The translations under genes were made by a program, and so were the position numbers. Positions 5,651-64,000 of a stretch of DNA of 64,000 nucleotides are shown here, one piece after another. This DNA comes from a virus. The notes beneath the pieces are model-generated. The model searched no databases and was not told the DNA's origin. It worked only from the letters and a program-made list of their open reading frames with translations. Position 1 is the stretch's first letter, and every line of letters starts with the position of its first letter. Location of the stretch: the IMG/VR virus record IMGVR_UViG_3300045541_000131, positions 1-64,000 of that record; one strand, given 5' to 3'.

Positions 5651-5654
5651 CAAT

Positions 5655-5720: not shown

Positions 5721-5740
5721 TATTATTTATATAATCAAAG

Positions 5741-5757: not shown

Positions 5758-5760
5758 AAG

Positions 5761-48699: not shown

Positions 48700-48708
48700 A
48701 TAGTTTAA

Positions 48709-48805: not shown

Positions 48806-48819
48806 ATTTATTTTTGACT

Positions 48820-49374
48820 ATGAAAACAATTATACTTGTAGCATTACCCGAAGAACTAGACAGCAGTCTAGTTGATGTGCCCGTTGTTTATACAGGAGTG
48901 GGCATCAGCAATGCTGCTATGATGACCTATGATGCTATAATAGAGCATAGTCCAGACTTAGTCATCAACTATGGTAGCGCAGGTAGTTTGAAAAACTACA
49001 AAGGATTATTGCCTGTTAATCGTGTTTGCCAGCGTGATGCAGATTGTAGCCCGTTACGTGATCGTGGCTACATGTTAGGTGAAAATGTGTTATACTATCA
49101 TAGCGGCGAAGATGGTGTTTATTGCGGCAGTGGCAATAACTTTGTTACAAAGCCCGATACTTGGACGCTAAATCATTGCGATATTGTCGATATGGAACTT
49201 TGGAGCATAGCTAAAGTTTGCGAATACCACAATGTTCGGTGGATCAGCCGCAAATGGATCAGCGATAATGCTGATAGCGAAGCGGGAAACACATGGGAAA
49301 CAGCACTAGCAGCAGGTCAGCAAGAATTCATCAAATGGTTTAAGTCAGGTAAATATACTAATATCTGCCCTTAA
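48820..49374 (+). CDS. MTA/SAH nucleosidase-like (PNP_UDP_1 family)
   Basis: VALPEE, TGVG..NAA, INYGSAG, VDMEL..IA, KWISDNAD. Confidence 0.85.
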   Translation: MKTIILVALPEELDSSLVDVPVVYTGVGISNAAMMTYDAIIEHSPDLVINYGSAGSLKNYKGLLPVNRVCQRDADCSPLRDRGYMLGENVLYYHSGEDGVYCGSGNNFVTKPDTWTLNHCDIVDMELWSIAKVCEYHNVRWISRKWISDNADSEAGNTWETALAAGQQEFIKWFKSGKYTNICP

Positions 49375-49377
49375 ACT

Positions 49378-50658
49378 ATGAAAATCCAGCAATTAATCAC
49401 AGAAACAGTCGACGGTAAAAATCTCCATCTCGAGCATCTGGATGATGAGATTTGGAATCGTGGACATCAAGGTGCCGTTGAAGCACTACAATACTTAGAA
49501 GGTGCTGCTGGCTTATTGCTTGGATCTAGCGATCAAAAGTATTTTGCTACTAAAAAGTGGGATGGTAGCCCAGCATTGCTAGTAGGCACAGATCCCGAAA
49601 CTGGCGCTTTTGTTATGGGCGACAAAGGCATTTTTAGTGCAACAAAAGAAAACAGAATATACAAGGCCGGCGATGTAGATCGTGTAAAGCCTGACAAAGA
49701 AGTTAAAGGCCAGAAAGTAGATCGTAGTGATCTTAGAACTAAACTCAAAACAGCCTTTAACTACTTAAAAGACTTAAACTACGGCGACAAGATTTTACAA
49801 GGCGATTTGCTTTGGACACAAGGCGACGGTCAAAGCGGATTCCAAATGATCGACGGCGTTAACTATTGGACATTTACTCCTAACTTGTTAACTTATGCTG
49901 TTCCAGCCGACACACCTCTGGCACAGCGCATGAGCAAGGCTAAGGTGGGTATTGTGTTTCATACAACCTATGAAGGTGGTCCTACTCTTAAAAACATGTC
50001 GGCGAGATTTGGTGCTGACATCGGTGAAATAGGCAGCACACCTTATATCTATGTTCGTGATGCTACAATTAAAGATGTTAGCGGCAGCGTAACACTAACA
50101 CAACGCGAAAGCAACATGTTGGAAATGGCCGTTGCTGAATTATGGAACTACTTGTCGGCAATCGGTGAAGAAACATTTAAATGGTTAGAAAGTTCAGTGG
50201 CCGGGCATAGCCTACGAGACTTAATCAAGATAGACATTAACAAAATGGTTCGTGCTGGTGCCATGGATCAGCCAGAAGCGTATGTTCAGCAGTTCCTTAA
50301 GAGATTAGCTGAAAGATTGACTGCTGACATTGAAAAACTAAAGACACAAGCTGGTCAGGATCGCAAGCGTGCCGCACAAGAAGAAGCATTAAAATATATT
50401 CAGCAGCACACTGAAAGCATTGAAAATGTTTACTTGTTGTTCATTGGTATTCAGCGTGTTAAAGATGTTTTACAGAAACACTACGCAGCTATTCGTCAAA
50501 TAGATACATTTATTGCCAGACCAGATGGCAGCTTTGATGTTAAACCCGAAGAAGGTGTAGTCATTGTTGACCATTTAGGCAAAGGCGGCAAGGAAGCAGT
50601 TAAGATTGTAGACAGATTAGATTTCAGTCGCGAAAACTTTGAAAAGGCTCGAGGATGA
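49378..50658 (+). CDS. phage protein with ligase-like KWDG motif (DUF6267-like)
   Basis: HLEHLDD, KKWDGSPA, QGDLLW, EGVV...KIVDRLDFSRENF. Confidence 0.65.
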   Translation: MKIQQLITETVDGKNLHLEHLDDEIWNRGHQGAVEALQYLEGAAGLLLGSSDQKYFATKKWDGSPALLVGTDPETGAFVMGDKGIFSATKENRIYKAGDVDRVKPDKEVKGQKVDRSDLRTKLKTAFNYLKDLNYGDKILQGDLLWTQGDGQSGFQMIDGVNYWTFTPNLLTYAVPADTPLAQRMSKAKVGIVFHTTYEGGPTLKNMSARFGADIGEIGSTPYIYVRDATIKDVSGSVTLTQRESNMLEMAVAELWNYLSAIGEETFKWLESSVAGHSLRDLIKIDINKMVRAGAMDQPEAYVQQFLKRLAERLTADIEKLKTQAGQDRKRAAQEEALKYIQQHTESIENVYLLFIGIQRVKDVLQKHYAAIRQIDTFIARPDGSFDVKPEEGVVIVDHLGKGGKEAVKIVDRLDFSRENFEKARG

Positions 50659-51284
50659 GATTACTAGAATTAAAAGGCGGGCGTAGACTTATAGTCGTAT
50701 ACGGTGGCGGCTTTCAGCCTTTTCATGTGGGACACATGAGCAGTTACTTACAAGGCAAGGCAGCATTTCCTGATGCTGACTTTTATGTTGCTGCCAGTAA
50801 TGTAACCAGCGAGCGTCCAATACCTTTTACTGAAAAGAAATTTTTAGCACAACAAGCTGGTGTTAGTGATCCTGTTGTTCAAGTGGGCACTATGAGTTAT
50901 ACAAATGATGCTGGCCGTAAAGTAACCAGCACTCCATTGAATCCTTTAGAAGTTTTACAAAAATACGATCCAAACAAAGATGTCCTAGTTATTCTACGCA
51001 GCGAGCGTGATCCAATGAAGACCACAGCCACTAGTTATTATCAGCCATGGCAAGGTATGGAAGCAGCAGAACCATTCGGCGAGCATGCTTATATTTTTGT
51101 AACTAAGAAACATGACTTTACTCTCTGCGGCAAAGATGTATGTAGCGGCACACAAGTTCGTAACATGTATCAAGAAGCCAATGACAAAGAAAGATTAAAT
51201 TTAATCAAACAACTATATCCCAGTGCTACTAATGAAGTAAAAATAAAGAAAATATTAGACAGCAGATTAGGTTCAGCAACATGA
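50655..51284 (+). CDS. cytidyltransferase-like (HxGH) nucleotidyltransferase
   Basis: GGGFQPFHVGH; SGTQVR. Confidence 0.8.
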   Translation: MRLLELKGGRRLIVVYGGGFQPFHVGHMSSYLQGKAAFPDADFYVAASNVTSERPIPFTEKKFLAQQAGVSDPVVQVGTMSYTNDAGRKVTSTPLNPLEVLQKYDPNKDVLVILRSERDPMKTTATSYYQPWQGMEAAEPFGEHAYIFVTKKHDFTLCGKDVCSGTQVRNMYQEANDKERLNLIKQLYPSATNEVKIKKILDSRLGSAT

Positions 51285-52999
51285 AATACTTAGAAATATT
51301 CGAGCAAATGCTCAGTGAAATCAACATGAGCCCCAGCAGCCTAAGAACACTGGCCAGCCAGATTGATGCTCGTGCTGGCATGGAGTTCGAAATGTTAGTG
51401 CCAGGTGTTGGTGGTGCAGATGAAGAAGGCGACATGGAACCCGACTACGGTGCCGACGAGCGTATTCGTAGATTTGGTGATATTAGAGACTTTTTCTATG
51501 ATGGTAACTTCAATAGTCGTCGCGATGTAGAGAGTTTAATGGATGAAATCTGGAACGATTACGCGGACAGCGATTGGCTCAGCGAAAAGAAACAATCAGC
51601 ATGGGATGAAGTTGCCGAAGATCATATCCGTGATTTAGTAGAGCGTGACTATGGTGATGAATATTTAGAACAAGCTGAGGAAGAAGCCAAAGATCAAGCA
51701 CCGGAATTCGGCATGAACGCTGAAGAACTACAACAAGCTGTACAGGTTCGTTATAAAGAATTATTCCTAGACAAAGTCAACGAAATCCTCAGCGACATGG
51801 GCGACGACTACGACAAGGCCTTTGAAGAATGGCAAGACGAAGTTTGGCCTGAAATTTGGAACGACGATGACATGTTCACCGACTGGGCCGAGGAAGAAGG
51901 CATGAGAATGATGAGTGACATAACAAGAGGTTATGAAATCACATGGCCACATTGGGAATCGCCTGAAACCGAAGGTGAAATAGACATTGAACAAGTTGCT
52001 GATGAATTCGGCGATGCTATAGGCAGACCAGTTAATTGGAGCCGCAATTATCATGGCGGCAAGCGAGCAGCCAACACTTATGTGGTCGAACCCGACGGCA
52101 GTTTAGATGGCGATGATCCTGGTGATGCTGGCTTAGAATTTGTTAGCCCACCATTACCCATACAAGAACTATTAAGTGATTTGGTTAAAGTTAAAAAATG
52201 GGCCGAAAGAGCAGGTGCTTATACAAATTCCAGTACTGGCTTACATATCAATGTCAGCGTACCTGGTTGGCAAGGCAATTTACAAGACTTAGATTATGTT
52301 AAACTAGCTGTATTGTTAGGCGATGAATATATTCTAGCTCAGTTTGGTCGCAGCAGTAACACTTATACCAAGAGTGCTTTAGGCATAGTTAAAAAGCATA
52401 TTCAACAGAGACCGCAAGACGCCGAGGCTCTGCTCAAGCAAATGAAGGATCACTTAAATGCTGCTGCCAGTAAATTAATACACAGCGGCGTTACTGAAAA
52501 GTATACCAGTATCAATGTTAAGGGTGGCTATATAGAATTTCGTAGTCCTGGCGGCGACTGGTTAAATGAAGATTTGGCTACGATTGAAGCAACCTTATTA
52601 CGATTTGTAGTGGCCATGGATGCGGCAGTGGATCCCAACAAGTACAAAGAAGAATACGCAAAGAAGCTTTATAAGTTATTAGCCCCTAGCAATGACACAA
52701 CAGATACGCTACAATACTTTGCTAGATTCAGTGCTGGCACACTACCTCGCAGTGCGTTGACTAGTTTTGTTAAACAAGCACAACTACAGCGTACAATGAA
52801 GAAAACAGGTCCTCAAGCGGGCAAGCGTTATTGGTGGGATGTATCTAAGCCGGACTCAGCAGCTGGCATTAGAGTAGTAGCTGCCACGAAAGAAGAAGCC
52901 ATTGCCAAGGCACAGGGAGAATACCCAGAATGGCGATATGCTAGAAACATTGTAGCTACGCCTTCGGAAGAATACAAAGAACAGGGAGCAGGCTCATGA
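51281..52999 (+). CDS. putative amidoligase (COOH-NH2 ligase) with acidic insert
   Basis: GMEFE, PDGSL, LEFVSPP, NSSTGLHINVS, IEFRSPGG. Confidence 0.8.
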   Translation: MKYLEIFEQMLSEINMSPSSLRTLASQIDARAGMEFEMLVPGVGGADEEGDMEPDYGADERIRRFGDIRDFFYDGNFNSRRDVESLMDEIWNDYADSDWLSEKKQSAWDEVAEDHIRDLVERDYGDEYLEQAEEEAKDQAPEFGMNAEELQQAVQVRYKELFLDKVNEILSDMGDDYDKAFEEWQDEVWPEIWNDDDMFTDWAEEEGMRMMSDITRGYEITWPHWESPETEGEIDIEQVADEFGDAIGRPVNWSRNYHGGKRAANTYVVEPDGSLDGDDPGDAGLEFVSPPLPIQELLSDLVKVKKWAERAGAYTNSSTGLHINVSVPGWQGNLQDLDYVKLAVLLGDEYILAQFGRSSNTYTKSALGIVKKHIQQRPQDAEALLKQMKDHLNAAASKLIHSGVTEKYTSINVKGGYIEFRSPGGDWLNEDLATIEATLLRFVVAMDAAVDPNKYKEEYAKKLYKLLAPSNDTTDTLQYFARFSAGTLPRSALTSFVKQAQLQRTMKKTGPQAGKRYWWDVSKPDSAAGIRVVAATKEEAIAKAQGEYPEWRYARNIVATPSEEYKEQGAGS

Positions 53000-54342
53000 G
53001 ATTAAGCGATTTACAAGAAAGTCAAACTGTCGTCGAAGACGCAAATCCTGTACAAAAGGCAGCAGTACATTTCTTTAACAGTAAAGTTGGCGATGTAGAC
53101 AAAGAAGCCGTTGATAACTATGTAGACGCTGCTAACAGTCTTTATAAAAAAGCACAGCAACAGGGTTTTGGCGATCAAGTAAAGCAAGCATTAGTTAAAG
53201 CCAAGAAAAGTCCTTATTTACAAGGTGGTGTTGTTACTACCATTGGTGCTGTACTTACTGGCGGATTATTAGCATCAGCACAGAGATTTGGCTTAACTCC
53301 TGGTCAAACAAATATGTTATTACAAGCAGTATTGAATACAGTTATTCCTACTGTAGTTAGTCGCATTAATGGTCGCAGTTGGGATGAAACTATTAAGTAT
53401 ACATTGGCCAGTGCCGCTACTGGCATAGGTGCCGCAGCAGCCATGGGCGAATCAGACTACAGTCCAATGACCAAAGACGCAATGAAAGCAGACAAGATCC
53501 GCAGTCTAGAGAATCTTATTGCCAAGTACAAAGAACAAGGTCGCCAATTAAAAGTTCAAGAACTTGAATTAGAACTAAAGAAACTACAAGGTGTGGCAGA
53601 AGGCCCATTGAATGAATCCGATAAATTTACTAGTTGGTATGATTGGAAAGATCAGGCTATAAGTAGTGGGTATACTATTACAAAAAAAGATGATAAAATT
53701 GTAGCATTGAACAAACAAGGCCAAATAGTCGGTCATTGGTCTGATGTTGGTAGGTTTCTAAGTGGTAAGGCACCGCGCCCAAATTTCAATGCCGCAATGC
53801 GGGCAAAAAAAAATCTAGATAATGAGCAAGGTGTGGCGGAAGAAATCAATCCCGAAGTTAAACAACCTGGGTTTAAGCATCGAATCGTAATAGGCGATTA
53901 CATCTATAGTGCCAAAGGCTCTCCCAGTGGCCTAAGGATAGAATGCCACGATAGTGAAGGTACACTTTTAGGCTACGCTCAGTTTATGTTTTACCGAGAC
54001 CACCTTGAAAGTCAGTATACTAAAGTTCGTAGTCAATACCAAGGCCAAGGTATAGCCAGCAATATGTATGCTTACGCACACATGCTAGGCAATGATATTC
54101 AGCCAAGTCCTTATTTAGAGCCTGACGGTAAAAAAATGTGGCGAGCATTCAAAAAATCCGGGGCGGCAAAAATTATGGCCGGTGATACAGTTAAGGAAGC
54201 CAAAATGAGTGCTGCTGTTAGATTTCAGCGTGCCATGGATCGCGAGCGTGCCAAAACTGATGCCCATTATCGAGCAGGCAAAGAAGTAATGGCTCGTGCT
54301 CGTGCCGAACAAGACAAGAAAAAAGAACAAGAGAAAAAATGA
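52996..54342 (+). CDS. modular protein with GNAT acetyltransferase module and QGVAE linkers
   Basis: VRSQYQGQGIASNMY...GKKMW acetyl-CoA motif; two QGVAE. Confidence 0.7.
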   Translation: MRLSDLQESQTVVEDANPVQKAAVHFFNSKVGDVDKEAVDNYVDAANSLYKKAQQQGFGDQVKQALVKAKKSPYLQGGVVTTIGAVLTGGLLASAQRFGLTPGQTNMLLQAVLNTVIPTVVSRINGRSWDETIKYTLASAATGIGAAAAMGESDYSPMTKDAMKADKIRSLENLIAKYKEQGRQLKVQELELELKKLQGVAEGPLNESDKFTSWYDWKDQAISSGYTITKKDDKIVALNKQGQIVGHWSDVGRFLSGKAPRPNFNAAMRAKKNLDNEQGVAEEINPEVKQPGFKHRIVIGDYIYSAKGSPSGLRIECHDSEGTLLGYAQFMFYRDHLESQYTKVRSQYQGQGIASNMYAYAHMLGNDIQPSPYLEPDGKKMWRAFKKSGAAKIMAGDTVKEAKMSAAVRFQRAMDRERAKTDAHYRAGKEVMARARAEQDKKKEQEKK

Positions 54343-54527
54343 AAACAATACACTGGTTCTATTTTGTATCAGCTCTTTGCGTAACATTTTTCGCAGGCTT
54401 AGTCTTAGGCATGATTGCCATGCGAGATTTTATGGCCGAAGAATTTATTGTTATAGATCCTGAAAAACTTCAGCACTATCGTCAGATTCATGAACCTGTA
54501 AAAAAATCTCAAGGAATGACAGCATGA
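54339..54527 (+). CDS. small membrane protein
   Basis: One TM segment; coupled ORF. Confidence 0.5.
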   Translation: MKTIHWFYFVSALCVTFFAGLVLGMIAMRDFMAEEFIVIDPEKLQHYRQIHEPVKKSQGMTA

Positions 54528-55771
54528 GATTACTTGAATTAAAGCAAGGTCTGGGACTAACTATCTTCGACATCGACGATACGCTGTTTCACACCACCGC
54601 CGAAATTAAAGTAATTAAGAACGGGCAAATTGTTCGCAGTCTAAATAATCAAGAATTCAACAACTACGAATTACAACCCGGCGAGTCATTTGACTTTGGT
54701 GAATTCCGCAGTGCCGAAAAGTTTAATCGTGAAAGTAAACCTATTAGACCAATGATTGCCAAATTAAAAGCCATGCTAAAGAACGCCGGAGACAGCACAG
54801 TTATCATGCTGACTGCTCGTGCCGACTTTGACGATAAAGAAAAGTTTTTAAGCACATTTGAAAAGTATGGCATTGATATGAGTCGTGTTCATGTACATCG
54901 TGCTGGCAACTTGCCTGGAGATGATATACCTGCTGAAAAGAAAGCCGTATGGGTTCGTCGCTACTTAGACACTGGCAAGTATGGTCGTGTAAGATTATAT
55001 GATGACAGCAGAACAAACTTAAAGGTATTTAAAGCATTGGCGGCAGAATACCCCAATGTTGAGTTCGAAGCCTACTATGTTGATCCTAATGGTCAAGCCA
55101 TAGTTCATGAACAAGAAGTATTTGAAGATTACAGCACTATAGTTCAAACACTTAGAAAAGCTGGCTATCAAGAACTTGGATCAGGTGCTGATGCTACTGT
55201 ATGGACCAAAGATGCAGGAACTGTAATTAAAATTATTGTACCCGAAGACGAAGAATCTGAGTCGGATCAAGCAGTTGCTACATTTAAAAAGTTCTACGAG
55301 TTCTGTATGGCACACCAGGACATAGAATGTTTGCCTAAGTTTATTAAAATACAAGGTAGCCATTACGCAGAGTTTGAAATAAAAGGTCGAACATTTTTAC
55401 AAATTGCCATGGAACAATTATATCCCATAAAGAAGAATAGCTTCGAACAAGGTATAGTTTATGTATTCAGCGATTATGCTACTAAACGAATACCATGGCA
55501 ACGAGTTAAACAAGAACTCACTCTGCCAAAAACATGGCATGATACTGAATTCTTTGAAAGAAAAGCTAATGAATTCGCATTGAAAATATCCCAGTTGAAT
55601 GAATTAGATGAAGCAAAATTATCAGTGCTATACAATGTAATGGTATTGTTATATCACACTGGTAGAATAAACAAGATGGGTTGGGATTTACACACAGAAA
55701 ATGCCATGCTAAGACGAGATGGCACTATAGTTATTATTGATCCGTGGTTCAATATAGAGGATGGTGTATGA
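54524..55771 (+). CDS. HAD-family phosphatase fused to protein-kinase-like domain
   Basis: FDIDDTL, LTAR, YDD; then LGSGADATVW..VIKI...DLHTEN...IIDP. Confidence 0.75.
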   Translation: MRLLELKQGLGLTIFDIDDTLFHTTAEIKVIKNGQIVRSLNNQEFNNYELQPGESFDFGEFRSAEKFNRESKPIRPMIAKLKAMLKNAGDSTVIMLTARADFDDKEKFLSTFEKYGIDMSRVHVHRAGNLPGDDIPAEKKAVWVRRYLDTGKYGRVRLYDDSRTNLKVFKALAAEYPNVEFEAYYVDPNGQAIVHEQEVFEDYSTIVQTLRKAGYQELGSGADATVWTKDAGTVIKIIVPEDEESESDQAVATFKKFYEFCMAHQDIECLPKFIKIQGSHYAEFEIKGRTFLQIAMEQLYPIKKNSFEQGIVYVFSDYATKRIPWQRVKQELTLPKTWHDTEFFERKANEFALKISQLNELDEAKLSVLYNVMVLLYHTGRINKMGWDLHTENAMLRRDGTIVIIDPWFNIEDGV

Positions 55772-56082
55772 ACATTGATGATTTAATGGGAAAGAGTCGT
55801 CCTAAAAAAGTCCAGCGTGAATATACTGACATGGAAAGAGCCATCATGGAAGGCGGCGGGGAAATATTATCAGACGATGTTTATTACCTACAAAAGGAAT
55901 TAGAACAACAGTTTGAAAACTTTGCCGACGGAAAGAAACCTGGACGCAAAGGACTAGCAAAACGCATGGGTGTAGATTGTAGCAAAAGCGAAACTGCACT
56001 ACGCAAGATTGCTAAAAATTCATCAGGCGAGCGTCAGCGTATGGCACATTGGTGTGCTAACATGAAGGGTGGCCGCAAGTGA
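55768..56082 (+). CDS. hypothetical protein
   Basis: GAGG RBS; FENFADGKKPGRKG module. Confidence 0.6.
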   Translation: MNIDDLMGKSRPKKVQREYTDMERAIMEGGGEILSDDVYYLQKELEQQFENFADGKKPGRKGLAKRMGVDCSKSETALRKIAKNSSGERQRMAHWCANMKGGRK

Positions 56083-56639
56083 AAGTTGCAGACATTATCA
56101 CCGAAGCCAAAGTCAGTGTCCGTGATCAAATCATTGCGGCTGTTAAAAAAGATGGCGGCAAGTTAAATGACTATTTTGTTAGATTTACAGATGTTGACCA
56201 GTTGGGATATTCAGCACGACAAAAGTTTGGTCGTACACCCGATGTCGGCGCTCCTGATTTTGATGTTGATTACATAGGAACAAACAAAGGTAGTCCAGCA
56301 CTTTGGTTTTACCCTTTAAAATATTATCTCAGTCAAAAAGAATCCTATGCTACTGATAAACCTTATGTATGGGTAGTCAAATTAAAACCTACAGCATGGC
56401 TACAGCCCGTTAGCAGTTCAACTAAAGAAAAACAGCCTGCACCTGCAGGACTTGAGCGAGTGGGATTTTTACGCAAATCTACTGTGCCTGCTGCTATATT
56501 TTTTAAACCTGGCTATGAACTTGTGGCTAAAATCTATGACTATGGCGGGCAGCATCAAAGACATGGTGAAGTCAAGGGTGCTCCTAAAAAACCTGGTTTA
56601 CTGTCAAAGGTATTAGGTATGTTTGGTAAAGGTAAATAA
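56079..56639 (+). CDS. hypothetical protein
   Basis: MKVADIITEA start. Confidence 0.65.
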   Translation: MKVADIITEAKVSVRDQIIAAVKKDGGKLNDYFVRFTDVDQLGYSARQKFGRTPDVGAPDFDVDYIGTNKGSPALWFYPLKYYLSQKESYATDKPYVWVVKLKPTAWLQPVSSSTKEKQPAPAGLERVGFLRKSTVPAAIFFKPGYELVAKIYDYGGQHQRHGEVKGAPKKPGLLSKVLGMFGKGK

Positions 56640-56645
56640 TATATT

Positions 56646-57983
56646 ATGCGATTACTAGAAATTAAATCACTATTAGAAGCTACAACACTTACCGCCAAGG
56701 AAATGTCCAAATACCCTTTCCGCCAAGAAGTGTTTTTACAAAAAGTTAAAAATCAAAGTCCTTTTGAACTAGATGACGGAACCAGCGGTGTAGTTGATAA
56801 AAAAGAACTACCTAGACTAAAGCAATTATTTGCAGCTGGTAACTTTGCTGCTGTTGGCAAAATCAAGCTAGCAGATGGCAGAATGGTTGCCATGGGCAAG
56901 TTTAAAAAGACTGGTGAGTTTGGCGGCAAGACTGGTGGCGAAGAAGGTAAAGTAAGTAATCGCGGTGAAGTTGCTGAAGGCATTATGGGTGCAGGTTTAT
57001 TTGCTAAACTAGCTGCTCGTGCCGGCGGAAAAATTAATGCTATTGGCCCAGATGATATTTGGCGTGTTATTGACCAACTAAAAAGCTCCGGTGCCGACGA
57101 ATACTCGATGAAGATTCGTGATGCTGGTAAGGTAGTCGTCAATGACAGCATTGTGTTTACATTAAGGCTAAAAGAAGGTCCTTATAAGGATTTGCTAAAT
57201 CCAGCCAAGCGTAGTTTATTAACTGACTTAGTGGGTAGCGTAGTTGAGTTTTCTAACAGTAAGGATGCTGAAGAATACAGTAAGTATTTCTACTTAAATG
57301 GCAAGCCTGATATTATCAATGTTATTGCCGACGGGGTTACTGAAGAGAAAAGCAGTAAAGTTGACGTTAAGGTCGTAGTAACTGATCCTAAGACTGGTCA
57401 ACAAAGCGAGCGTGTATTGAATCTAAGCCTAAAAGCTGGAGCCGATCAGTTCGGTCAAGTTGGCGGTGGCAAGGCCGCTGTTGCCGGCAGTCAGTTTGAA
57501 AGCCAAAAAACACTATGGAGTCGTTTTGGTATAGATGTAGAAAGTCTACGTGCTGACTTTGAGCGTTTACTCAAGGATAAAGGCCTATTGGAGGCCATTG
57601 CCATGATGTATACTAACGCTGACAGCATGTTTAGAGAACTATTAAGCGGTGACTACGACGAAGAAGAATATTTGTATCTAAAGGACTTTGTCAAAGCCAT
57701 TAATTATTTTGCTACATTAAACATGCCTAATATCTTATTAGTCAGCATGGAAGGCGGCACTTATGATGTGTTGAACTTTGACTTGCTAGAAGGCAAGCTA
57801 AAAGACATCAATCTCAGCAGTAGATTTAGCGAAACAACCAAGAATCCTCAAGTTGAAATTTACGACGAAGCTACAGGACAATGGCTGCTTAGAGTTCGTG
57901 CTAAAGTAGAGGGCGGTAGTTATTTGCGTAACTACATCGAAAAAGGCCCGCTAATGTCTAAGCTAATTAGCGTCAAACGCTAA
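56646..57983 (+). CDS. hypothetical protein, possible PD-(D/E)xK nuclease fold
   Basis: NRGEVAEG...KVDV...LSLK; TAAATA upstream. Confidence 0.55.
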   Translation: MRLLEIKSLLEATTLTAKEMSKYPFRQEVFLQKVKNQSPFELDDGTSGVVDKKELPRLKQLFAAGNFAAVGKIKLADGRMVAMGKFKKTGEFGGKTGGEEGKVSNRGEVAEGIMGAGLFAKLAARAGGKINAIGPDDIWRVIDQLKSSGADEYSMKIRDAGKVVVNDSIVFTLRLKEGPYKDLLNPAKRSLLTDLVGSVVEFSNSKDAEEYSKYFYLNGKPDIINVIADGVTEEKSSKVDVKVVVTDPKTGQQSERVLNLSLKAGADQFGQVGGGKAAVAGSQFESQKTLWSRFGIDVESLRADFERLLKDKGLLEAIAMMYTNADSMFRELLSGDYDEEEYLYLKDFVKAINYFATLNMPNILLVSMEGGTYDVLNFDLLEGKLKDINLSSRFSETTKNPQVEIYDEATGQWLLRVRAKVEGGSYLRNYIEKGPLMSKLISVKR

Positions 57984-58025
57984 TTTCAATTTAAAATAAT
58001 CGAACAAAATTGACTAAATAATACT

Positions 58026-58313
58026 ATGAAAATAGTAGAACTTATCGCGGAAGATGCAGGCGGCATGGGAGCAGGCAGCGTTGCTGCTGTAGCTATGCCT
58101 TTTATGCGTCCTCATCGCAAACGCAAAACACGCACAATGCGTCGGGAAAGCGGCAACGAAATCCTACGCAGAATGCCTTATAATAATATTGCCGAAGAAT
58201 TAATGGCTTCACTGGAAGAAAAGTGGAGCGAAAAATACAAGCGTAGTATTAACTGCGATAACCCTAAAGGTTTTAGTCAAAAAGCACATTGCCAAGGAAG
58301 AAAAAATGGATAA
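58026..58313 (+). CDS. hypothetical protein
   Basis: MKIVELIAED; LEEKWSEKYKRSINC.NPKGFSQKAHC. Confidence 0.65.
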   Translation: MKIVELIAEDAGGMGAGSVAAVAMPFMRPHRKRKTRTMRRESGNEILRRMPYNNIAEELMASLEEKWSEKYKRSINCDNPKGFSQKAHCQGRKNG

Positions 58314-59385
58314 AGCAAAAGCCCGTAAAATGTATGAACTTGCTGATCGTTTAAGCAAAGTTGATACAAGTAGCCTAAATGAACAGCAACTAGCAGAGCG
58401 TAGTGCTATGATTCAACGCCTTGGCGAAGAACTAAAAGCTATGAAGCAGGGTGTGGCGGAAGCCAGAGGTTTTACTGATCAAGACCTTGAATATTATGAT
58501 AGAGTGGCACGAGAAGCAATTGAGCTAAGTCGACAGTGGCAGAAGAAACCATTGGATACTATGATAGGCGGTAAGGCTATGATAAGGATTACTCAACTTT
58601 TAGGTCCAAGAGGTCTATTGCCAGAATTTTTTAAGGTAGACATTACAGCGGTCGCTGGCGATACTAACCATTATAAAGATCAGTATGCGAAGGCTATATC
58701 TGGTTACAATCCAGCCTATAAACCAACACAACTTATGCAACGGGTAAAGGAGCTCAATGAGCTGTTCGTTATAAGTAAGGATCCCAACGAAGTTGCAAAA
58801 CTAGACGCACAAAGATTGTCAATGGAAATATTTACGTTTGCTGGAATTATTCAAGATTTTGTGATACGACAACTTAACCAGATGGACATGCATAACCGTA
58901 ATAAATCGCTCCGATTCGGTCCAAACACCCAGCGCGAAGGTATGGCAGAAGACGAAGAAGACTTGCACACAAGTTTTAATGTTGTTAAACTTGGTGGTGC
59001 TTTAAATGCTGATCCTCGAACACTTCGTGCTGCTATTGCAAGACACATGCAGGGCAACCCCACAAGAACAGATATAATGGTATTAGCTAATGCGTTCATG
59101 GGAATGTTAAAGAACAGCGACGATCAAGAAATACAAAGAATTGCTAACTTAATCAAGTCTGGCAATCCTCGCGAAGTTCCGCAGGAAAGCACTGCTGCTA
59201 TAGCCGAACGCAATGCTTTCGTTGATGCAATGCGTCAAGTTAAAAAAGGTGAAAAGTTTACAGTAGGTGGCAAGGAGTTTACAAAGACTACAAGCCACGG
59301 TGAAGATGAAGTTAAAGAAGCCGTTGACACAGAAGCCTACGACAGACTCAAGAAGGCATTTGATTTCAGCGATTACAAAGGTTAA
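58306..59385 (+). CDS. modular hypothetical protein with QGVAE/EGMAE linkers
   Basis: Linkers at 58447 and 58936. Confidence 0.65.
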   Translation: MDKAKARKMYELADRLSKVDTSSLNEQQLAERSAMIQRLGEELKAMKQGVAEARGFTDQDLEYYDRVAREAIELSRQWQKKPLDTMIGGKAMIRITQLLGPRGLLPEFFKVDITAVAGDTNHYKDQYAKAISGYNPAYKPTQLMQRVKELNELFVISKDPNEVAKLDAQRLSMEIFTFAGIIQDFVIRQLNQMDMHNRNKSLRFGPNTQREGMAEDEEDLHTSFNVVKLGGALNADPRTLRAAIARHMQGNPTRTDIMVLANAFMGMLKNSDDQEIQRIANLIKSGNPREVPQESTAAIAERNAFVDAMRQVKKGEKFTVGGKEFTKTTSHGEDEVKEAVDTEAYDRLKKAFDFSDYKG

Positions 59386-59388
59386 ATT

Positions 59389-60783
59389 ATGAAACTATTT
59401 GAATTATTCGAAAGCCCAATGATGACTGGGGCCAGCAATCTAAAAGTTATTGCCGACGCAGTCAGAAGCAGTACCAGTGCTGAAATCAGCTTGGGCGGTG
59501 AACCAGTAACACTAGAGCCACAAGAAGCAAACTATGTTTATAGTTTGTACAAGAGCGCATTAGAGAATGGTCGTCAAGAACAGTTTATGCAAATGCTCAG
59601 TGATCCACAAAGTTTTGATCGCATCATGGGCGGCATGCGTACTCGCATGGATACCATTCAACAAAAGATGTCAGGTACACACCCTAGCATGACAGGTGCT
59701 GCGGCAACTCGTATCGGTCAGCCTGGCGTGCAAGAAGATGCTCCTTTGGCAACTCCAGATCAACCTGCTGAAAACACACATACATTAAAGTATATTGTCA
59801 AGCGTTTTCCTAAAGAAGTTAAAGAGTTTTTCGGTACAGGCGAACTAGATGAGCATTTATACGATGCGTTATTTGATTACTACAACATGCATGGCGAAAT
59901 GCCATATGGCGTTGCTAAGGCTCGCACAGCCGATCCGATTCAGTGGATTGGTGACAGATTCGAAAAAGACGCACAACCATATCTTCACTTACATGAAAGT
60001 CTAACCGAAGCTAAGAAGGCAGTTTCTGAGCGTTGGGATGATGACGATGATGATTGGTGGGGTCTAAAAGACAAAAAGACTAGTAAGACCAGCGCAGGCG
60101 GTACAGTTACACAAACCGGCACCGGTGTTGTTCACAAAGGCAAATATGGCAGTGAATACCAAGGTGATGATGGCGACGACGATGACTACGATGAGTGGGG
60201 CAAGAAAAAACCCGAAGCTAAGGCCAAGGCTGCTGCTAAAAAGGCAGCTGATAAAGCAGCTGAAACAAAACGCAGTCGTGGACGCCCAAGTGCTGCTATC
60301 AAATCAGCCGACGGCAGTGAAACAATCAGTGACTACAGTACATGGTATCGTAAGAGCAAGCGCAGCCACCCTGAGCGTAAGATTGCTGGCAGTGCTAACA
60401 AAGCTGTGGCAGTTATTCCTAAGGGTAAGAAGTTTGCTGTAGTTGGTTCATGGGATGGCAGCAAAGGTAGTATTATGGCTAAAGCAGGAGAACTAATGAC
60501 TGCCGACCAATTAAGTAGCTTTAAGAGTGCCAAAGGTCGTCCTAAGAAAGTTCGTGAGTTCATCGAAAATCTACGCTATGTCGTAGAAGCTAAAAATGAC
60601 ATGGGCGAAACAGAATACACTACTTACAGCGGTTGGAAGGCTGCTTGTAAAAAGGCCGGGGCCGACAAGTTTGACGGTGACCGCGATATTTGCCAAGCTA
60701 TGAAAGATGGCAAGGGCGTAGGCGAGTGGGACGGTGCTGTGGGCACAGTTTATGATGACGCACATAAGAAAGCAGCAAAATGA
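59389..60783 (+). CDS. modular hypothetical protein
   Basis: MKLFELFES; RGRP AT-hook-like motif; internal duplicated domain. Confidence 0.7.
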   Translation: MKLFELFESPMMTGASNLKVIADAVRSSTSAEISLGGEPVTLEPQEANYVYSLYKSALENGRQEQFMQMLSDPQSFDRIMGGMRTRMDTIQQKMSGTHPSMTGAAATRIGQPGVQEDAPLATPDQPAENTHTLKYIVKRFPKEVKEFFGTGELDEHLYDALFDYYNMHGEMPYGVAKARTADPIQWIGDRFEKDAQPYLHLHESLTEAKKAVSERWDDDDDDWWGLKDKKTSKTSAGGTVTQTGTGVVHKGKYGSEYQGDDGDDDDYDEWGKKKPEAKAKAAAKKAADKAAETKRSRGRPSAAIKSADGSETISDYSTWYRKSKRSHPERKIAGSANKAVAVIPKGKKFAVVGSWDGSKGSIMAKAGELMTADQLSSFKSAKGRPKKVREFIENLRYVVEAKNDMGETEYTTYSGWKAACKKAGADKFDGDRDICQAMKDGKGVGEWDGAVGTVYDDAHKKAAK

Positions 60784-61748
60784 GACTAAATGACATCAGC
60801 GAAGGCGTAGCAGGTCCTAAGAATTGTTGGCCTGGTTATCGTAAAGTAGGCACTAAGCCAGGTACAGGCAAGAACGCCGGTAAGCGTGTCAACGACTGCG
60901 AAAAGATCAAAGAGAGCGTTGATATAGAAGACACATATAAAGGTTGGAAGTTTGAAGTTGAATTTCAAAAAGAAGATGACCGTAATGTAACATTTTATAG
61001 TGCTGTTAGTCCTGAAGGCAAAACTCATATGTTGCCCAAGCGAGCAACCAAAGAACAGTTTAGACAGTTTGTTGACAGCAAAACTGTCAAAGAAGGCCAA
61101 GTAACTAAAACTAAAACTGGCATTATTCATCGAGCCACAGACAAGTATGGAGCAGGAGAAACCGGTTTTGGTGACTACGGCTTAGAAAAAACTGCCATGG
61201 ACTTAACAGCCTTAAACAAGGATCTAACTAGTCGACTAGACAAAAGCATGGGTGTTAAGCACGACCATGGTAATAAAAAGAAAACAAAAGAAGGCTTAGG
61301 TGATGAAATCAATCCTGCTGATCGTGGCGAATATGATCGCGAAGGTGACATGGCCATTAATCAACTAAAGACTATCGAAGACGCTGCCACAGAATTACGC
61401 AGTATCTTAGACGCAGAAGATAACTTGCCTGAGTGGGTTCAAGCAAAAATTACTAAGGCTGTAGACTATATTGATACTGCTCGCGATTATATGAAGTCTA
61501 AAGAGCAGGGTGTAACTGAAAGAGTTAGAGATCCCGAAGATTGGGACGAAGGCACTGATAAAATACCTAATAATATTGAAGTTAGTATCAATGGTCGTTC
61601 ATGGAAAGTTTTTGCTGGACGCGGCTTGCCCGACAGTCGAGAAGAACGCAATCATTTAACTAAAATGAAACAGTGGGCAGCAAGCAAGAGTGCTGCTACT
61701 GGTAAGCAATGGGAAGTGCGTCTAACTGGTGCACCAGTTAGTCGTTAA
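60780..61748 (+). CDS. modular hypothetical (head-internal-type) protein
   Basis: CWPGYRKVGTK; EYDREGDMA..QL...LPEWVQAKIT; QGVTE linker. Confidence 0.7.
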   Translation: MRLNDISEGVAGPKNCWPGYRKVGTKPGTGKNAGKRVNDCEKIKESVDIEDTYKGWKFEVEFQKEDDRNVTFYSAVSPEGKTHMLPKRATKEQFRQFVDSKTVKEGQVTKTKTGIIHRATDKYGAGETGFGDYGLEKTAMDLTALNKDLTSRLDKSMGVKHDHGNKKKTKEGLGDEINPADRGEYDREGDMAINQLKTIEDAATELRSILDAEDNLPEWVQAKITKAVDYIDTARDYMKSKEQGVTERVRDPEDWDEGTDKIPNNIEVSINGRSWKVFAGRGLPDSREERNHLTKMKQWAASKSAATGKQWEVRLTGAPVSR

Positions 61749-61760
61749 AGCGAGCCAGCA

Positions 61761-62246
61761 ATGAGATTATACGAACTACTAGAAAGCCTAGACAAAAACC
61801 AAAAGCGTGTGGGTCAAGTTGCCGGTGAAGAACCAGCTCGTAAGATTGGGCCAGTATTAGGTAAGGCTCCTAAACAGCATCCTTATAAAGGTCGCCTAGT
61901 AGGTGAAGAAGTCGAAGACATTGACGAAGCTAGTTTAGCTACAATGAGATCGTATTTTGACGGCGACGAAGACGCAGAAGATCCTAGCAAGTCAACTATG
62001 ATGCGTAAGTATTATGCTGCCCTGGACCAAAAGCTCAAAGATAAAAATAAAAAGAAGCCCGAAGATATTAACAAGCTAGACAAAAGCAATTATGTAGTAA
62101 TCAACAAACGAGTTAGCGAAGTTGCACCTCCTGGCATGGAAGATTGGATCAAAGATCGTAAAGCAGATTTCAAAAAGCGTTATGGTGATCGTTGGGAAGA
62201 AGTACTCTATGCAACTGCATGGAAACGCAAGAACGCTGGAAAATAA
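61761..62246 (+). CDS. modular hypothetical protein
   Basis: MRLYELLES; EVAPPG...FKKRYG...YATAWK. Confidence 0.7.
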   Translation: MRLYELLESLDKNQKRVGQVAGEEPARKIGPVLGKAPKQHPYKGRLVGEEVEDIDEASLATMRSYFDGDEDAEDPSKSTMMRKYYAALDQKLKDKNKKKPEDINKLDKSNYVVINKRVSEVAPPGMEDWIKDRKADFKKRYGDRWEEVLYATAWKRKNAGK

Positions 62247-62266
62247 TATAGAAATATCAAGTAAAT

Positions 62267-62293
62267 AAATGCAGGCTTAGTCCTGCATTTTTT
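62267..62293 (+). terminator. intrinsic terminator closing the array
   Basis: aaatgcagg-cttagt-cctgcatttttt. Confidence 0.7.
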
Positions 62294-63184
62294 ATGGCCG
62301 AACACAATATATCAATTGACAATTTTAGTGATGCTTACTTGCTGGGCTATGGTGCTGGCAGTATGGGAGACTTTTTAGCCAGTTTAATGATCTATTCGTT
62401 TTATAAAAAATTCAACCAACCTCACCGCAGAGAAATAGCAGACTCTTTTTATTATGAGCCATGGTCCAAAAAATGGCTAGTCAATGACTCTACAACAGGA
62501 AAATTTAGAACGTATTTAGAAGAACGAAAGAATATCATTCATTCATCGGATCCTACAAATACCACTAATCTTCGAAAATTTCATATAACTGAGGAAATGA
62601 TCAACTCATCCGATGAGCTAGCACATTTTTTTGTTCGTAACTCCGGTCCAAATAAACTAAAAAAAATTCCTTATTTTTTTGTCAGCGAAAACATTACTTT
62701 TTATAGCAGAACAGAAGTATCTGGCCAACGCCTAAAGAATATTAATTTTATATATTCCAGGTTCAAAGACACAGCACTGTATCCTTTGTATTTTTTATTA
62801 CCCTTGTATAAAAATACAATATCTGCAAAAAGGTATTCTGCTTCTATATTTCAAACCAGAGACGAATTTATCAGCGACACTGAAAAAATTTTAACTGCCG
62901 CAAAAAATAATAGACCAATAGTAAGAGGACAGTCTGAAGTACAAGACAAGATATTAGAAAAGAAAAATCATTACGACTTTGATATAATGAAATTACTTTT
63001 AGAGTATGATCCTCAGGGATTGGAATTTTTAATTACTGATGACGCTGAAAGTAAAAATATGATAGATTTGGCCAGACGAGACATGTTCGACATATTAGAT
63101 TTTTTCAATCTAGATCTAGGTGATTTAACTGTATCTGATACTGATCATCTGCACAAAATTTATGATCGTATCGAACGTTTATAG
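62294..63184 (+). CDS. hypothetical AT-rich protein (sulfotransferase-like N-loop)
   Basis: GYGAGSMGDFLASL. Confidence 0.55.
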   Translation: MAEHNISIDNFSDAYLLGYGAGSMGDFLASLMIYSFYKKFNQPHRREIADSFYYEPWSKKWLVNDSTTGKFRTYLEERKNIIHSSDPTNTTNLRKFHITEEMINSSDELAHFFVRNSGPNKLKKIPYFFVSENITFYSRTEVSGQRLKNINFIYSRFKDTALYPLYFLLPLYKNTISAKRYSASIFQTRDEFISDTEKILTAAKNNRPIVRGQSEVQDKILEKKNHYDFDIMKLLLEYDPQGLEFLITDDAESKNMIDLARRDMFDILDFFNLDLGDLTVSDTDHLHKIYDRIERL

Positions 63185-63195
63185 GTAAATACTTG

Positions 63196-63327
63196 ATGTT
63201 AAACAAAGTCTTTGAAATCTATTTCGATAGCTTGGTACAATTCTATCTGGGCATGTATTACATGCCTTATTTTTTGGCTGGGGCACAGACACCAAATGAA
63301 ATACTGGCAGGAATATGTAAGAAGTAG
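63196..63327 (+). CDS. small hypothetical protein (43 aa)
   Basis: ATG just after TAAATA at 63186. Confidence 0.35.
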   Translation: MLNKVFEIYFDSLVQFYLGMYYMPYFLAGAQTPNEILAGICKK

Positions 63328-63706
63328 TTACGAACTTGTTCTGGAAGCAGAAGGTAAAACAGCAGTATATCTCAATGATGATATAGAAAGTTATCTCGTG
63401 AGATTACTAGCTCGTTGGTTTGACCGTGCCGATATACCGCCCGAAACACCAGTGGCAATATTGCTAATGACTGCCATGCAAAAGCCACGGGAACATGAAC
63501 TAGCCCAAGTTGCTGACATTTGTTTATTTTATGACAGCTTTAAAATTAAACACCAACGTTGGCCTAATGCTAATTACTATAAAGACATGGGACAAATTGC
63601 CTACGGCATGGCCTATGTTGCCAGCAACGATAAACTATATAACCAGCTTGAAACAAAATTTTCTAGTTGCAGTAAAATACTGTCTAACTTAAAAATACAA
63701 CTTTAG
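63296..63706 (+). CDS. hypothetical protein
   Basis: W...V.EAE...L.DDIESYLV.LL...ADICL...YY.DMG..AY. Confidence 0.65.
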   Translation: MKYWQEYVRSSYELVLEAEGKTAVYLNDDIESYLVRLLARWFDRADIPPETPVAILLMTAMQKPREHELAQVADICLFYDSFKIKHQRWPNANYYKDMGQIAYGMAYVASNDKLYNQLETKFSSCSKILSNLKIQL

Positions 63707-63756
63707 TATTAGCTGTAATTTATTAAAATGATAAATAATAAAACAGGAATATAATT

Positions 63757-64000
63757 ATGGACGAACTAGTTCAAGCACTTAAAAAAGTTTTAGCCAATCA
63801 CTATGCCTTTAGTCTTAAGGCACAAAATTTCCATTGGAACGTGGAAGGTGCTGACTTCAGTCAATACCATGCGCTATTTGGACAGATTTATGACGAAGTT
63901 TATGGCGCAGTAGATGTTATTGCCGAACGTATTCGTACATTAGATGCTTATGCTCCTGGAAGTTTTCGTAGATTTGCTGATCTATCTGATATCGAAGATC
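63757..64000 (+). CDS. dps: Dps / ferritin-like DNA protection protein, 3' truncated
   Basis: FHWNVEG.DF..YH.LF...Y.E.....D.IAERIR (translated by hand). Confidence 0.92.
   Translation, partial: MDELVQALKKVLANHYAFSLKAQNFHWNVEGADFSQYHALFGQIYDEVYGAVDVIAERIRTLDAYAPGSFRRFADLSDIED

Follow-up and report, generated by a model that had tools for sequence, protein, structure and literature searches.

A DNA-conserved GVAE linker bounds exchangeable modules in multi-module proteins of large freshwater phages

A short linker, GVAE at the peptide level and near-invariant as DNA, separates autonomous small modules in "beads-on-a-string" proteins of a group of uncultured phages from fresh water that have large genomes (to ~340 kb) and T4-like genes. 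Codon bias falls far short of explaining how firmly the silent positions of this word are fixed. Between genes and between phages, modules have been added, removed, exchanged for others, or reordered, and the breakpoints cluster at the linker. The linker is described here from a 64,000-nt stretch of DNA (the window), part of a 138,652-b record that represents a fragment, about one third (33% complete), of the genome of an uncultured giant freshwater phage. Five sites were found in three plus-strand genes of the window: 52996-54342 (two), 58306-59385 (two), and 60780-61748 (one). We consider it probable that they are copies of a family-wide inter-module linker that combines a putative head-protease cut site with a recombination microhomology. 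No published description of such a linker system was found in the literature.

Linker sites and modules in the gene cluster

The three genes lie in a 14-gene run (Table 1), nine members of which start with a leader such as MRLSDLQE, MKLFELFE, or MRLYELLE, compared with none of the 162 genes in the rest of the 138.6-kb record (Fisher p 5.5e-12). The silent sites of the leader codons differ among the cluster genes, i.e., the leaders are not conserved as DNA. The cluster is syntenic to that of a relative, L015, and to a genome region of cyanophage S-WAM2 devoted to nucleotide metabolism and replication; the S-WAM2 orthologue of the cytidylyltransferase has no leader.

Table 1. Features of the gene cluster, in positions of the window
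Feature	Coordinates	Strand	Remarks
14-gene run	49378..62246	+	leader M-[RK]-[LIVFY]-x-x-[LIF]...[LIVF]-x-E at start of 9/14
Leader MRLSDLQE of gene 52996-54342	52996..53019	+	resembles T4 capsid-targeting sequence
Module A, aa 9-152	53020..53451	+	ends ...AAMGE
Segment aa 153-197	53452..53586	+	missing from near-identical orthologues
Linker 1, QGVAE	53587..53601	+	CAAGGTGTGGCAGAA
Cassette B, 75 aa	53602..53826	+	GPLNESDKFTSWYDWKDQA...
Linker 2, QGVAE	53827..53841	+	CAAGGTGTGGCGGAA
Cassette C, aa 283-395	53842..54180	+	predicted small GNAT-like fold (weak Pfam, AlphaFold2/Foldseek)
Disordered joint AGDTVKEAK, then C-terminal helical tail	54181..54342	+	
Conserved N-terminal part of gene 58306-59385	58306..58446	+	aligns with L015 and L016 up to linker
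Linker 3, QGVAE	58447..58461	+	CAGGGTGTGGCGGAA
Block 2, 158 aa	58462..58935	+	variable insert, orphan
Variant linker EGMAE	58936..58950	+	GAAGGTATGGCAGAA; right edge of block 2
Conserved C-terminal part of gene 58306-59385	58951..59385	+	
LPEWVQAKIT module, aa 184-242 of gene 60780-61748	61329..61505	+	phrog_32745
Variant linker QGVTE	61506..61520	+	CAGGGTGTAACTGAA
Extra C-terminal module, 75 aa, behind QGVTE	61521..61748	+	missing in S-WAM2 homologue

An initial annotation of this DNA had listed five related 15-mers, at 53587, 53827, 58447, 58936, and 61506, and all of them were confirmed at these positions and in frame. Exact matches to CARGGTGTGGCRGAA numbered three in the window and zero in each of 100 shuffled controls; no further copy was found in the 138,652-b record. 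With up to three mismatches allowed, there were nine matches against 3.46 expected, and one of the 100 shuffles reached nine. Since shuffles can reach this number of near-matches, the EGMAE and QGVTE sites are not significant as DNA matches alone; they are supported by their frame and position. The synonymous positions said to be shared between the sites are indeed shared: GGT, GTG, and GAA are used in all three exact copies and GCG in two of the three. While GGT accounts for 35.9% of Gly codons in the genome and 42.5% in the cluster, GTG (12.3% and 10.3% of Val codons) and GCG (5.7% and 4.6% of Ala codons) are the rarest of their families in this genome, and because these rare codons are used, codon bias fails to explain the exact copies. 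Outside the 15-mers, no similarity between sites was found in the flanking DNA, and no RNA structure was detected at the three exact sites (z 0.37, 0.82, and -1.31). L015 keeps RGVAE (GGTGTGGCGGAA) where the window has linker 3, and its QGVTE codons are those found at 61506.

Gene 52996-54342 joins four independent modules in one polypeptide. Module A (aa ~10-155) independently matches, at varied positions, many proteins of 206-1398 aa, and natural variants break exactly after 53451, at the Glu codon of M-G-E. The segment behind it is absent from orthologues P0029 and P0030, while aa 148-208 match independently in P0135, P0143, and P0157. The C-terminal helical tail is common to all orthologues; in P0030, module A is fused straight to it, EDVVE being followed by AK. 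Among orthologues with 95% identity over their common parts, there are forms with no cassette, with a single other one, and with two. Contigs from four other freshwater studies span both ends of the gene and not 53452-53826, and in those of two of these studies (runs X6 and X9), 53451 is joined to 53827/53828.

A small GNAT-like fold is predicted for cassette C from weak matches: Pfam GNAT hits have E 0.006, and a Foldseek search with an AlphaFold2 model (pLDDT 84.8) returned GNAT acetyltransferases as all top PDB matches (E 2e-3, TM 0.36-0.45). In the AlphaFold2 model, residues 119-127 have pLDDT < 50 and are followed by a long helix, and both the linker and the TVKEAK joint are modelled as unfolded, with low confidence. 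Cassette C also occurs alone behind a leader, MRxxE[IF]IxE, in proteins of 125-138 aa, and is preceded either by a leader (ending in ISE) or by a linker (ending in VAE). In all 16 listed contexts (four with the same arrangement), the residue immediately before it is Glu, and the residue two places before that Glu is V in 10, I in two, M in two, L in one, and A in one. This position is mostly Val here, compared with Leu or Ile in T4.

The blocks enclosed by linker pairs, described initially as in frame, measure 225 nt (53602-53826) and 474 nt (58462-58935). No relatives of block 2 were found; it is absent from L016, and L015 has an unrelated sequence in its place (BLASTP E 1.4). Conservation with L015 and L016 restarts at most three residues past EGMAE. 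The impression that the codon usage of block 2 is odd was borne out, with a fraction of 0.003 of 2000 same-size cluster windows being equally atypical in synonymous codons; for block 1 (cassette B) the fraction was 0.075 of 2000, a marginal value. In gene 60780-61748, the S-WAM2 homologue stops at ...DYMKSK, exactly where the LPEWVQAKIT module ends.

The linker word and homology breakpoints across viral contigs

A scan of viral stretches with an exact 17-mer gave matches in at least 120 viral contigs, and 80 of these loci, which yielded 82 unique ORFs, were analysed. The linker consensus is [K/E]-[Q/E/K]-G-V-A-E, then G/A/E/D. At the DNA level it corresponds to the near-invariant word (A)AGGTGTGGCGGAAG, which, with few exceptions, is read in frame as GVAE (327 of the 331 core words, in open frames of at least 100 aa) and is often present several times per gene, up to ~13 linkers per chain (P0019). 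Large genomes contain 3-4 copies, on one strand only, and a reversed control gave 0. In a bacterial control, the same 17-mer gave single matches (mean GC 62%), with two or more words in one of 120 loci, compared with 82 of the 120 listed loci for viral contigs (mean GC 41%).

Among 75 GVAE sites that had not been used for finding the loci, 48 were GGTGTGGCGGAA, against 0.9% expected, with GTG in 64 (background 22%) and GCG in 63 (background 11%). At 73 sites, the codon before the linker was mostly NAA (Q 31, E 19, K 15) and the codon after it mostly GNN (G as first base in 69). The variant linkers are a single base away from the word. GVSE variants use TCN in nine of nine cases (TCG in five), though AGY makes up 56% of Ser codons, and 10 of 13 GMAE variants use GCG. 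Judged by the genome frequencies, the 48 of 75 sites, and the codons of the variants, codon bias alone is insufficient to account for the DNA identity of the linkers.

In HSPs of at least 85% identity and at least 40 aa, 218 of 314 internal homology ends lay no more than 6 aa from G[VM][AST]E, with 28.7 expected. Since 96 of the 314 ends were away from a GVAE-type linker, other joints exist besides it, e.g., M-G-E at 53451. Each of 27 proteins contained one copy of cassette B, next to which 20 different neighbours occurred on the left and 17 on the right; for the 11 copies of a second cassette family, there were 11 different neighbours on either side. The copies of cassette B that were read by eye (four ORF contexts, 12 proteins) have a V-A-E linker on both sides, where G-V-A-E, K-V-A-E, D-V-A-E, and also G-M-A-E were counted as flanking forms. 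Between four phage contexts, 75-82% of its same-amino-acid codons are identical, so its flanking linkers could be hitch-hiking. No function lead for cassette B was obtained from Pfam or ESM Atlas, and a Pfam search of seven related chains returned DUF6321, DUF3008, a weak TAT_signal, and nothing else.

The initial annotation had proposed that linkers conserved as DNA bracket exchangeable cassettes. Because orthologues are not colinear and codon bias is insufficient, this reading is supported, and far more widely than in the window: blocks are present, absent, or swapped, with breakpoints at the repeats.

A proposed mechanism and its alternatives

A dual role had also been suggested for the 15-bp element, that of a Glu-specific protease site and of a recombination joint. 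Motif-bounded exchange and frozen silent sites hold; the two molecular roles are retained as putative. We propose that a Glu-specific prohead protease of the T4 type would cut at V-A-E, and that the N-terminal M-R-x-x-E-L-x-E leaders would serve as capsid-targeting sequences, so that chains would be loaded into the prohead, split into separate modules, and delivered along with the DNA. This part of the proposal is suggested by the V-A-E motif, which is similar to the L/I-X-E rule of the T4 head protease, by its positional equivalence to the T4-like leader, and by the presence of Peptidase_S77 in two of five large carrier genomes, where it adjoins Gp23. Both S77 and Gp23 are absent at E 0.01 or better from three of the five, one of which is 99% complete, and neither Peptidase_S77 nor a Gp23-type capsid protein was found in the record (33% complete) or in five related fragments. 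This protease would act on the leaders too, and they are not conserved as DNA, so recognition by a protease is not enough to freeze codons.

The breakpoint statistics and the frozen silent sites point to a second role, in which the 12-15 identical bases may act as microhomology for recombination between co-infecting relatives. Stretches of 12-15 bases are short for homologous recombination. If new junctions arise only at an intact word, the consensus would be constantly re-sampled, a form of concerted evolution, and for this reason silent sites would be frozen in the linker while drifting in the leaders.

The identity of the DNA could instead be passive, the linker being purely a peptide signal (a protease site or spacer) whose sequence reflects recent single-copy descent, hitch-hiking with cassettes, and exchange via longer neighbouring homology. 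The codon identity of cassette B between contexts does indicate recent transfer, and the word, in frame as GVAE in 327 of 331 cases, was at no point observed to act independently of the peptide. Nevertheless, linkers between unrelated modules keep the rare codons in many contigs (48 of 75 versus 0.9% expected), silent sites do vary in the leaders, whose peptide is similarly constrained, and the flanks across a junction are often unrelated, so that the word is the only shared sequence. We therefore regard passive identity as rather unlikely.

It is also unlikely, though conceivable, that the element is dual-coded in a stricter sense, being at once a putative in-capsid cut site and the DNA target of a phage-encoded exchange activity (a nickase, homing nuclease, or annealing protein). 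In that case, effector cassettes that are injected and fit together in frame would form a common library of giant freshwater phages, comparable to an integron that operates within open reading frames. A related view, to which we give a slim chance, is that a dedicated sequence-specific enzyme (homing endonuclease, nickase, or site-specific recombinase) reads the 15-base word and moves the cassettes. An asymmetric word of 13-15 bases, extremely conserved and always on the coding strand, would suit such an enzyme, as would the direct copies that flank cassettes as after single-site insertion. However, the class searched, tyrosine recombinases (PF00589), yielded no candidate, being absent from five of five carrier records (two at least 97% complete; control, 14/14 genomes), and by inspection the word is non-palindromic and has no inverted-repeat partner.

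Fixation of silent sites for the sake of translation, with the rare GTG GCG pair slowing the ribosome at domain boundaries so that each module folds first, appears very doubtful. These codons are the rarest of their families (GTG 10-12%, GCG about 5%), and the variant linkers use rare TCG and ACG too, but the common GGT and GAA are equally fixed, the same two rare codons always recur rather than any rare ones, and the flanking NAA/GNN pattern crosses amino-acid classes; moreover, a search of the record for tRNA genes gave none, and the three sites showed no RNA structure. Finally, although all data are metagenome assemblies and a near-identical cassette of ~250 bp could mislead an assembler, it is extremely improbable that the mosaic contexts are chimeras assembled at a shared repeat, since the same ORFs were recovered from separate metagenome records (728-aa form, five; 504-aa form, four; 769-aa form, two), 18-25% of same-amino-acid codons differ when cassette copies of different contexts are compared, contigs of four further studies show alternative joints, and the 15-17-base word is presumably shorter than usual assembly k-mers.

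Relation to known systems and significance

The T4 leader ends in I-A-E, which resembles the V-A-E of the linker. The capsid-targeting sequence of T4 is described as 10 residues long and processed after L/I-X-E by gp21 (PMC9026906), and the internal proteins as highly diverse cargo behind a conserved targeting peptide (PMC9026906, PMC3012670). As far as these accounts go, IPI, IPII, IPIII, and Alt share with the chains studied here a short N-terminal leader ending in hydrophobic-X-Glu, with cuts, putative in our case, C-terminal to the Glu. T4 cargo proteins, however, are single units with one N-terminal site (Alt also has a C-terminal one), whereas here up to ~13 internal linkers join unrelated modules; the linker is also fixed at the DNA level, and processing and packaging are putative. 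In phiKZ, 201phi2-1, and SPN3US, likewise giant phages, many head proteins, among them ejection and inner-body proteins, are reported to be cut after Glu at a three-residue motif, S/A/G-X-E or A-X-E, by a gp21-related protease (PMC5694885, PMC9026906). Those sites remove propeptides of paralogous families, and the available text of these reports describes no invariant linker, cassette chains, or DNA-level conservation.

Polyvalent proteins of phages and conjugative elements consist of two to fifteen disparate domains and are predicted to be injected with DNA and then processed (PMC5512222, Iyer et al. 2017). Processing is attributed there to a metallopeptidase domain carried in the same chain, and the available text does not use the term "linker" (PMC5512222). 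The presence of several disparate domains per polypeptide is shared by the proteins described here, gene 52996-54342 having four modules, but the hallmark metallopeptidase was not found by Pfam in seven chains, and the window genes gave weak GNAT hits only. Unlike in polyvalent proteins, the modules here are mostly tiny and a fixed linker stands at every joint.

Breaks of homology at a short conserved coding motif are also known from other families. Glycine-rich motifs of T-even gp38 and His boxes of gp37 separate variable segments, and exchanges within or near them are reported to give chimeras (PMC3157838). In CdiA (VENN) and Rhs (PxxxxDPxGL), divergence is abrupt after the motif and cassette homology starts or stops at the motif DNA, where recombination was proposed as a means of reloading cassettes (PMC3150448). 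As described in these sources, the adhesin motifs are structural, lying within one folded domain at fixed positions and in fixed order, while the word studied here separates independent modules that move between genes; CdiA and Rhs are bacterial proteins with one motif and a single C-terminal toxin accompanied by an immunity gene, whereas here a different motif occurs many times per protein, in phage genomes, with no immunity partner. No paired small gene per cassette was seen in the gene context, and no tail-fibre, CdiA, or Rhs domains were found in the window genes or in the seven related chains examined. Integrons and shufflons, too, have discrete cassettes bounded by a repeated site, and shufflon sites lie in frame within a gene. 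They differ from the present case in that the five carriers have no tyrosine recombinase and that the repeats are direct, asymmetric, and translated.

If the preferred reading, a linker that is both a cut site and a recombination microhomology, is true, giant phages assemble and re-assort proteins that are delivered with their DNA, and one short word both tells the head protease where to cut and marks in-frame splice points. Such a system would account for how quickly cargo that probably acts early or counters defence is replaced. In metagenomes, hundreds of uncharacterised small phage proteins could then be delimited by the simple rule of splitting at GVAE, and nature would provide a design for delivering several cargoes in T4-type capsids.

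The linker word in the window and in other viral contigs

A sequence check of the window confirmed the initial annotation's observation: five strings encoding QGVAE-type linkers are present at the positions listed below, in frame, in three plus-strand genes.

Coordinates of the linkers, cassettes and other features discussed
Feature	Start	End	Strand
Linker, QGVAE type	53587		+
Linker, QGVAE type	53827		+
Linker, QGVAE type	58447		+
Linker, EGMAE	58936		+
Linker, QGVTE	61506		+
Gene 52996	52996	54342	+
Module A of gene 52996	53020	53451	+
Cassette B of gene 52996	53602	53826	+
Cassette C of gene 52996	53842	54180	+
Gene 58306	58306	59385	+
Block 2 of gene 58306	58462	58935	+
Gene 60780	60780		+
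Region of leader-bearing genes	49378	62246	
732-aa AAA+ protein	26576	28774	
Iron-sulfur-assembly-like gene run	14369	20194	
Paralogous gene array (G000, the whole viral record, C1; outside the window)	103967	133713	-

A degenerate linker pattern gave three exact matches in the window versus none in 100 shuffles. The annotation had described all five sites as conserved in DNA; this holds for the three exact ones; at the two looser sites, the DNA match by itself does not reach significance (with up to three mismatches, nine matches versus 3.46 expected from shuffles of the window). The exact sites use the codons GGT GTG GC(A/G) GAA. GTG and GCG account for only 12% of Val and 6% of Ala codons, respectively, in this genome, so codon bias does not explain the DNA identity of the linkers. 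The DNA flanking each 15-mer is unrelated from site to site.

The 17-mer CAAGGTGTGGCGGAAGG was found in at least 120 viral contig stretches; 80 of these loci were analysed, and their 82 unique ORFs contain 178 sites that encode GVAE. Of the 75 GVAE sites that played no part in locus detection, 48 have the sequence GGTGTGGCGGAA, which codon usage predicts at 0.9%; GTG was used in 64 and GCG in 63. Variant linkers differ from the word by one base: GVSE is written with TCN in nine of nine cases (TCG in five), though 56% of Ser codons are AGY, and GMAE keeps GCG in 10 of 13. Q, E or K (NAA) precedes the linker, and G, A, E, D or V (GNN; first base G in 69 of 73) follows it, a pattern more suggestive of a constraint on nucleotides than on the peptide. 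Of 331 core words in 140 loci, 327 encode GVAE in the reading frame of an ORF of at least 100 aa, and the 151 unique ORFs from these loci carry one to seven linkers each. Large viral genomes with the word contain three to four copies, on a single strand (reversed-word control, 0). We conclude that the frozen DNA of the linker word is well supported.

As a control, the same 17-mer was sought in 596 Gb of bacterial genomes, where at least 120 loci were found. Among the matches listed, a second word was present in one of 120 bacterial loci (mean GC 62%) versus 82 of 120 viral loci (mean GC 41%). Most of the bacterial matches listed come from GC-rich genomes and, as judged by eye, from housekeeping genes; the low-GC ones listed are by eye ordinary genes, except for the MAG contig L166, which looks like a phage chain. 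These single bacterial matches were read as chance background, and the genomes were rejected as hosts. In a sequencing run from another study (X4), record 6 (7591 nt) shares with gene 52996 only four perfect 18-21-base linker matches, which pair window positions 53587-53843 with four contig positions; it is presumably another chain gene, judging by these matches.

Exchange of cassettes at linkers

A full HMMER search with the 448-aa protein of gene 52996 returned 444 matches at E ≤0.001, in four independently matching parts. A search with the gene identified 11 viral loci that match residues 177-308 only, centred on cassette B. Cassette B also occurs in three further proteins, of 769, 728 and 504 aa, with a V-A-E linker on both sides and unrelated sequence beyond. 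When the 85-aa block was used as a protein query, 28 of 56 candidates matched at E ≤0.001, and most of the block is present in 25 of these 28 (lengths 169-1301 aa); an ESM Atlas search with cassette B gave no usable match. Twelve cassette-B proteins were examined and proved to be chains of small modules in permuted order, separated by up to about 13 linkers in a chain. When 179 proteins were cut at G[VM][AST]E, 621 modules of at least 25 aa in 467 families were obtained; cassette B occurs 27 times, with 20 distinct neighbours on its left and 17 on its right. Internal homology (HSPs of at least 85% identity) ends within 6 aa of a linker in 218 of 314 cases, versus 28.7 expected, and elsewhere in 96. 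Codons for the same amino acid in cassette B are 75-82% identical between four contexts, so silent-site divergence of the cassette versus its own linkers is not discriminating.

Among orthologues with 95% identity in their common parts, one form has module A and the tail only (206 aa), another has module A, a different cassette, C and the tail (388 aa), and a third has another N-terminal part with C and the tail (377 aa). In four other freshwater studies, contigs at least 90% alike span 52996-53451 and 53848-54342 and leave the interval between these uncovered. Two of them join 53451, where the Glu codon of M-G-E ends, directly to 53827/53828, and two run past 53451 into another cassette type. 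Assembly chimeras were rejected as the source of the mosaic contexts; the same ORFs occur in contigs from different metagenome records. In L015, a syntenic viral locus (5495-5872, compared with window 52996-54527), gene 52996 and the small ORF behind it are absent; whole linker-bearing genes therefore come and go between close relatives.

Gene 58306 in L015 retains both conserved ends around an unrelated middle (E 1.4), and DNA homology extends through GGTGTGGCGGAAGC and then ends; in the related locus L016, block 2 is absent. The prediction that blocks would be present, absent or swapped at the repeats is thus borne out by the 95%-identical orthologues, by L015 and L016, and by the four-study contigs. 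Two protein searches with block 2 (58447-58950) returned no relatives among longer or similar-length proteins, a weak negative; the window's own protein was also not returned. For this block only replacement and absence are therefore demonstrated. Its codon usage, described as different by eye, is indeed atypical: only 0.003 of 2000 same-size windows were equally extreme. In gene 60780, the homologue of cyanophage S-WAM2 stops exactly where the window has QGVTE and an extra module. Taken together, the cassette-and-linker architecture is well supported.

The word as a likely recombination joint

At many junctions, the word is the sole sequence common to the partners, and it is likely to be a recombination joint. 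We infer an exchange mechanism in which new junctions would form only at an intact word, so that the consensus would be continually re-sampled and a dedicated enzyme would not be needed. Tyrosine recombinase was found in none of five carriers, with 14 of 14 control genomes positive. It is less likely that the silent sites of the word are kept by selection for rare codons. The leaders (short N-terminal peptides likened to the T4 capsid-targeting sequence), which would be sites of the same protease, vary at silent sites, so recognition of the peptide is not enough to freeze the codons. No RNA family or fold accounts for the word: there were no Rfam families in 48000-64000, and RNA around the three exact linkers folded no better than shuffles, with no common fold. 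An internal translation start at the linker was rejected by inspection, there being no start codon at usable distance behind AGGTG.

The phage genome and putative processing of the chains

The 138,652-b viral record, whose first 64 kb form the window, was rated 33% complete by CheckV, and the whole genome is therefore probably giant. The window encodes a family-B DNA polymerase, a phage-type clamp loader and a large AAA+ protein, and it also has tail-fibre-like genes. By protein, the nearest cultured relatives are T4-like cyanophages and pelagiphages; a near-identity search with 52996-61748 found no cultured phage close in DNA, and a one-protein comparison with near-complete carriers gave a single weak match only. 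No tRNA genes were found across the 138.6-kb record. In one gene run, ATPase-like, cysteine-desulfurase-like and small scaffold-like proteins together look, by eye, like a set for iron-sulfur cluster assembly; two of its genes have only phrog matches of unknown function. In the ORF list of the paralogous array, many N-termini are Cys-rich and of radical-SAM type (e.g. ...SSRCNSRCPMC), and interleaved genes begin like SGNH/GDSL hydrolases.

The leader motif M-[RK]-x-x-x-[LIF]...[LIVF]-x-E occurs in nine of the 14 genes of its region versus none of 162 other ORFs of the record. It is common to a ligase-like DUF6267 protein, a cytidylyltransferase, an amidoligase, and kinase/phosphatase-like and GNAT-like proteins; the orthologous cytidylyltransferase of S-WAM2 is without it. 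Cassette C is modelled as a small GNAT-like fold (pLDDT 84.8; GNAT matches weak but uniform). It occurs alone in 125-138-aa proteins, directly behind the leader (...ISE|AINPD...), and in the window it follows a linker (...GVAE|EINPE...). All 16 listed contexts have Glu as the residue preceding it and V, I, M, L or A two residues ahead of that Glu; the end of the leader and the linker are therefore positionally equivalent. From such sequence contexts, the linker is likely a protease cut site. In T4, the protease gp21 cleaves after L/I-X-E, and the capsid-targeting sequence has 10 residues (PMC9026906). The linker Val differs from the residue preferred in T4, which counts against this. Peptidase_S77, the prohead-protease family, adjoins a Gp23 capsid gene in two of five large carriers; also against a cut site, neither was found at E ≤0.01 in the other three, one of which is 99% complete, and no Peptidase_S77 was found in the 33%-complete record or in five related fragments. 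The 732-aa protein, with two AAA+ modules (phrog_4871, 'ATP-dependent protease', E 1.9e-237), could be another factor for processing or unfolding.

Outside the window, residues 493-512 of P0018, a related chain, resemble a twin-arginine signal (RRGFLKGLGAAAVAGAAG; sub-threshold Pfam match to TAT_signal, E 4.8e-4). This stretch begins directly behind a linker and would be meaningful as an N-terminal export signal only after the linker is cut.

No published description of the linker was found in the open-access literature; the QGVAE matches listed include no phage paper and are mostly to alpha-synuclein, which contains KQGVAEA by coincidence. The gp38 adhesins (PMC3157838) and CdiA/Rhs toxins (PMC3150448) show motif-mediated swapping like that seen here, and polyvalent proteins (PMC5512222) work similarly, though with an in-chain peptidase, which Pfam did not find in seven chains here. 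If, as we infer, the chains are cut by a protease and packaged, they would work like the capsid-targeted internal proteins of T4, here extended to multi-module chains.
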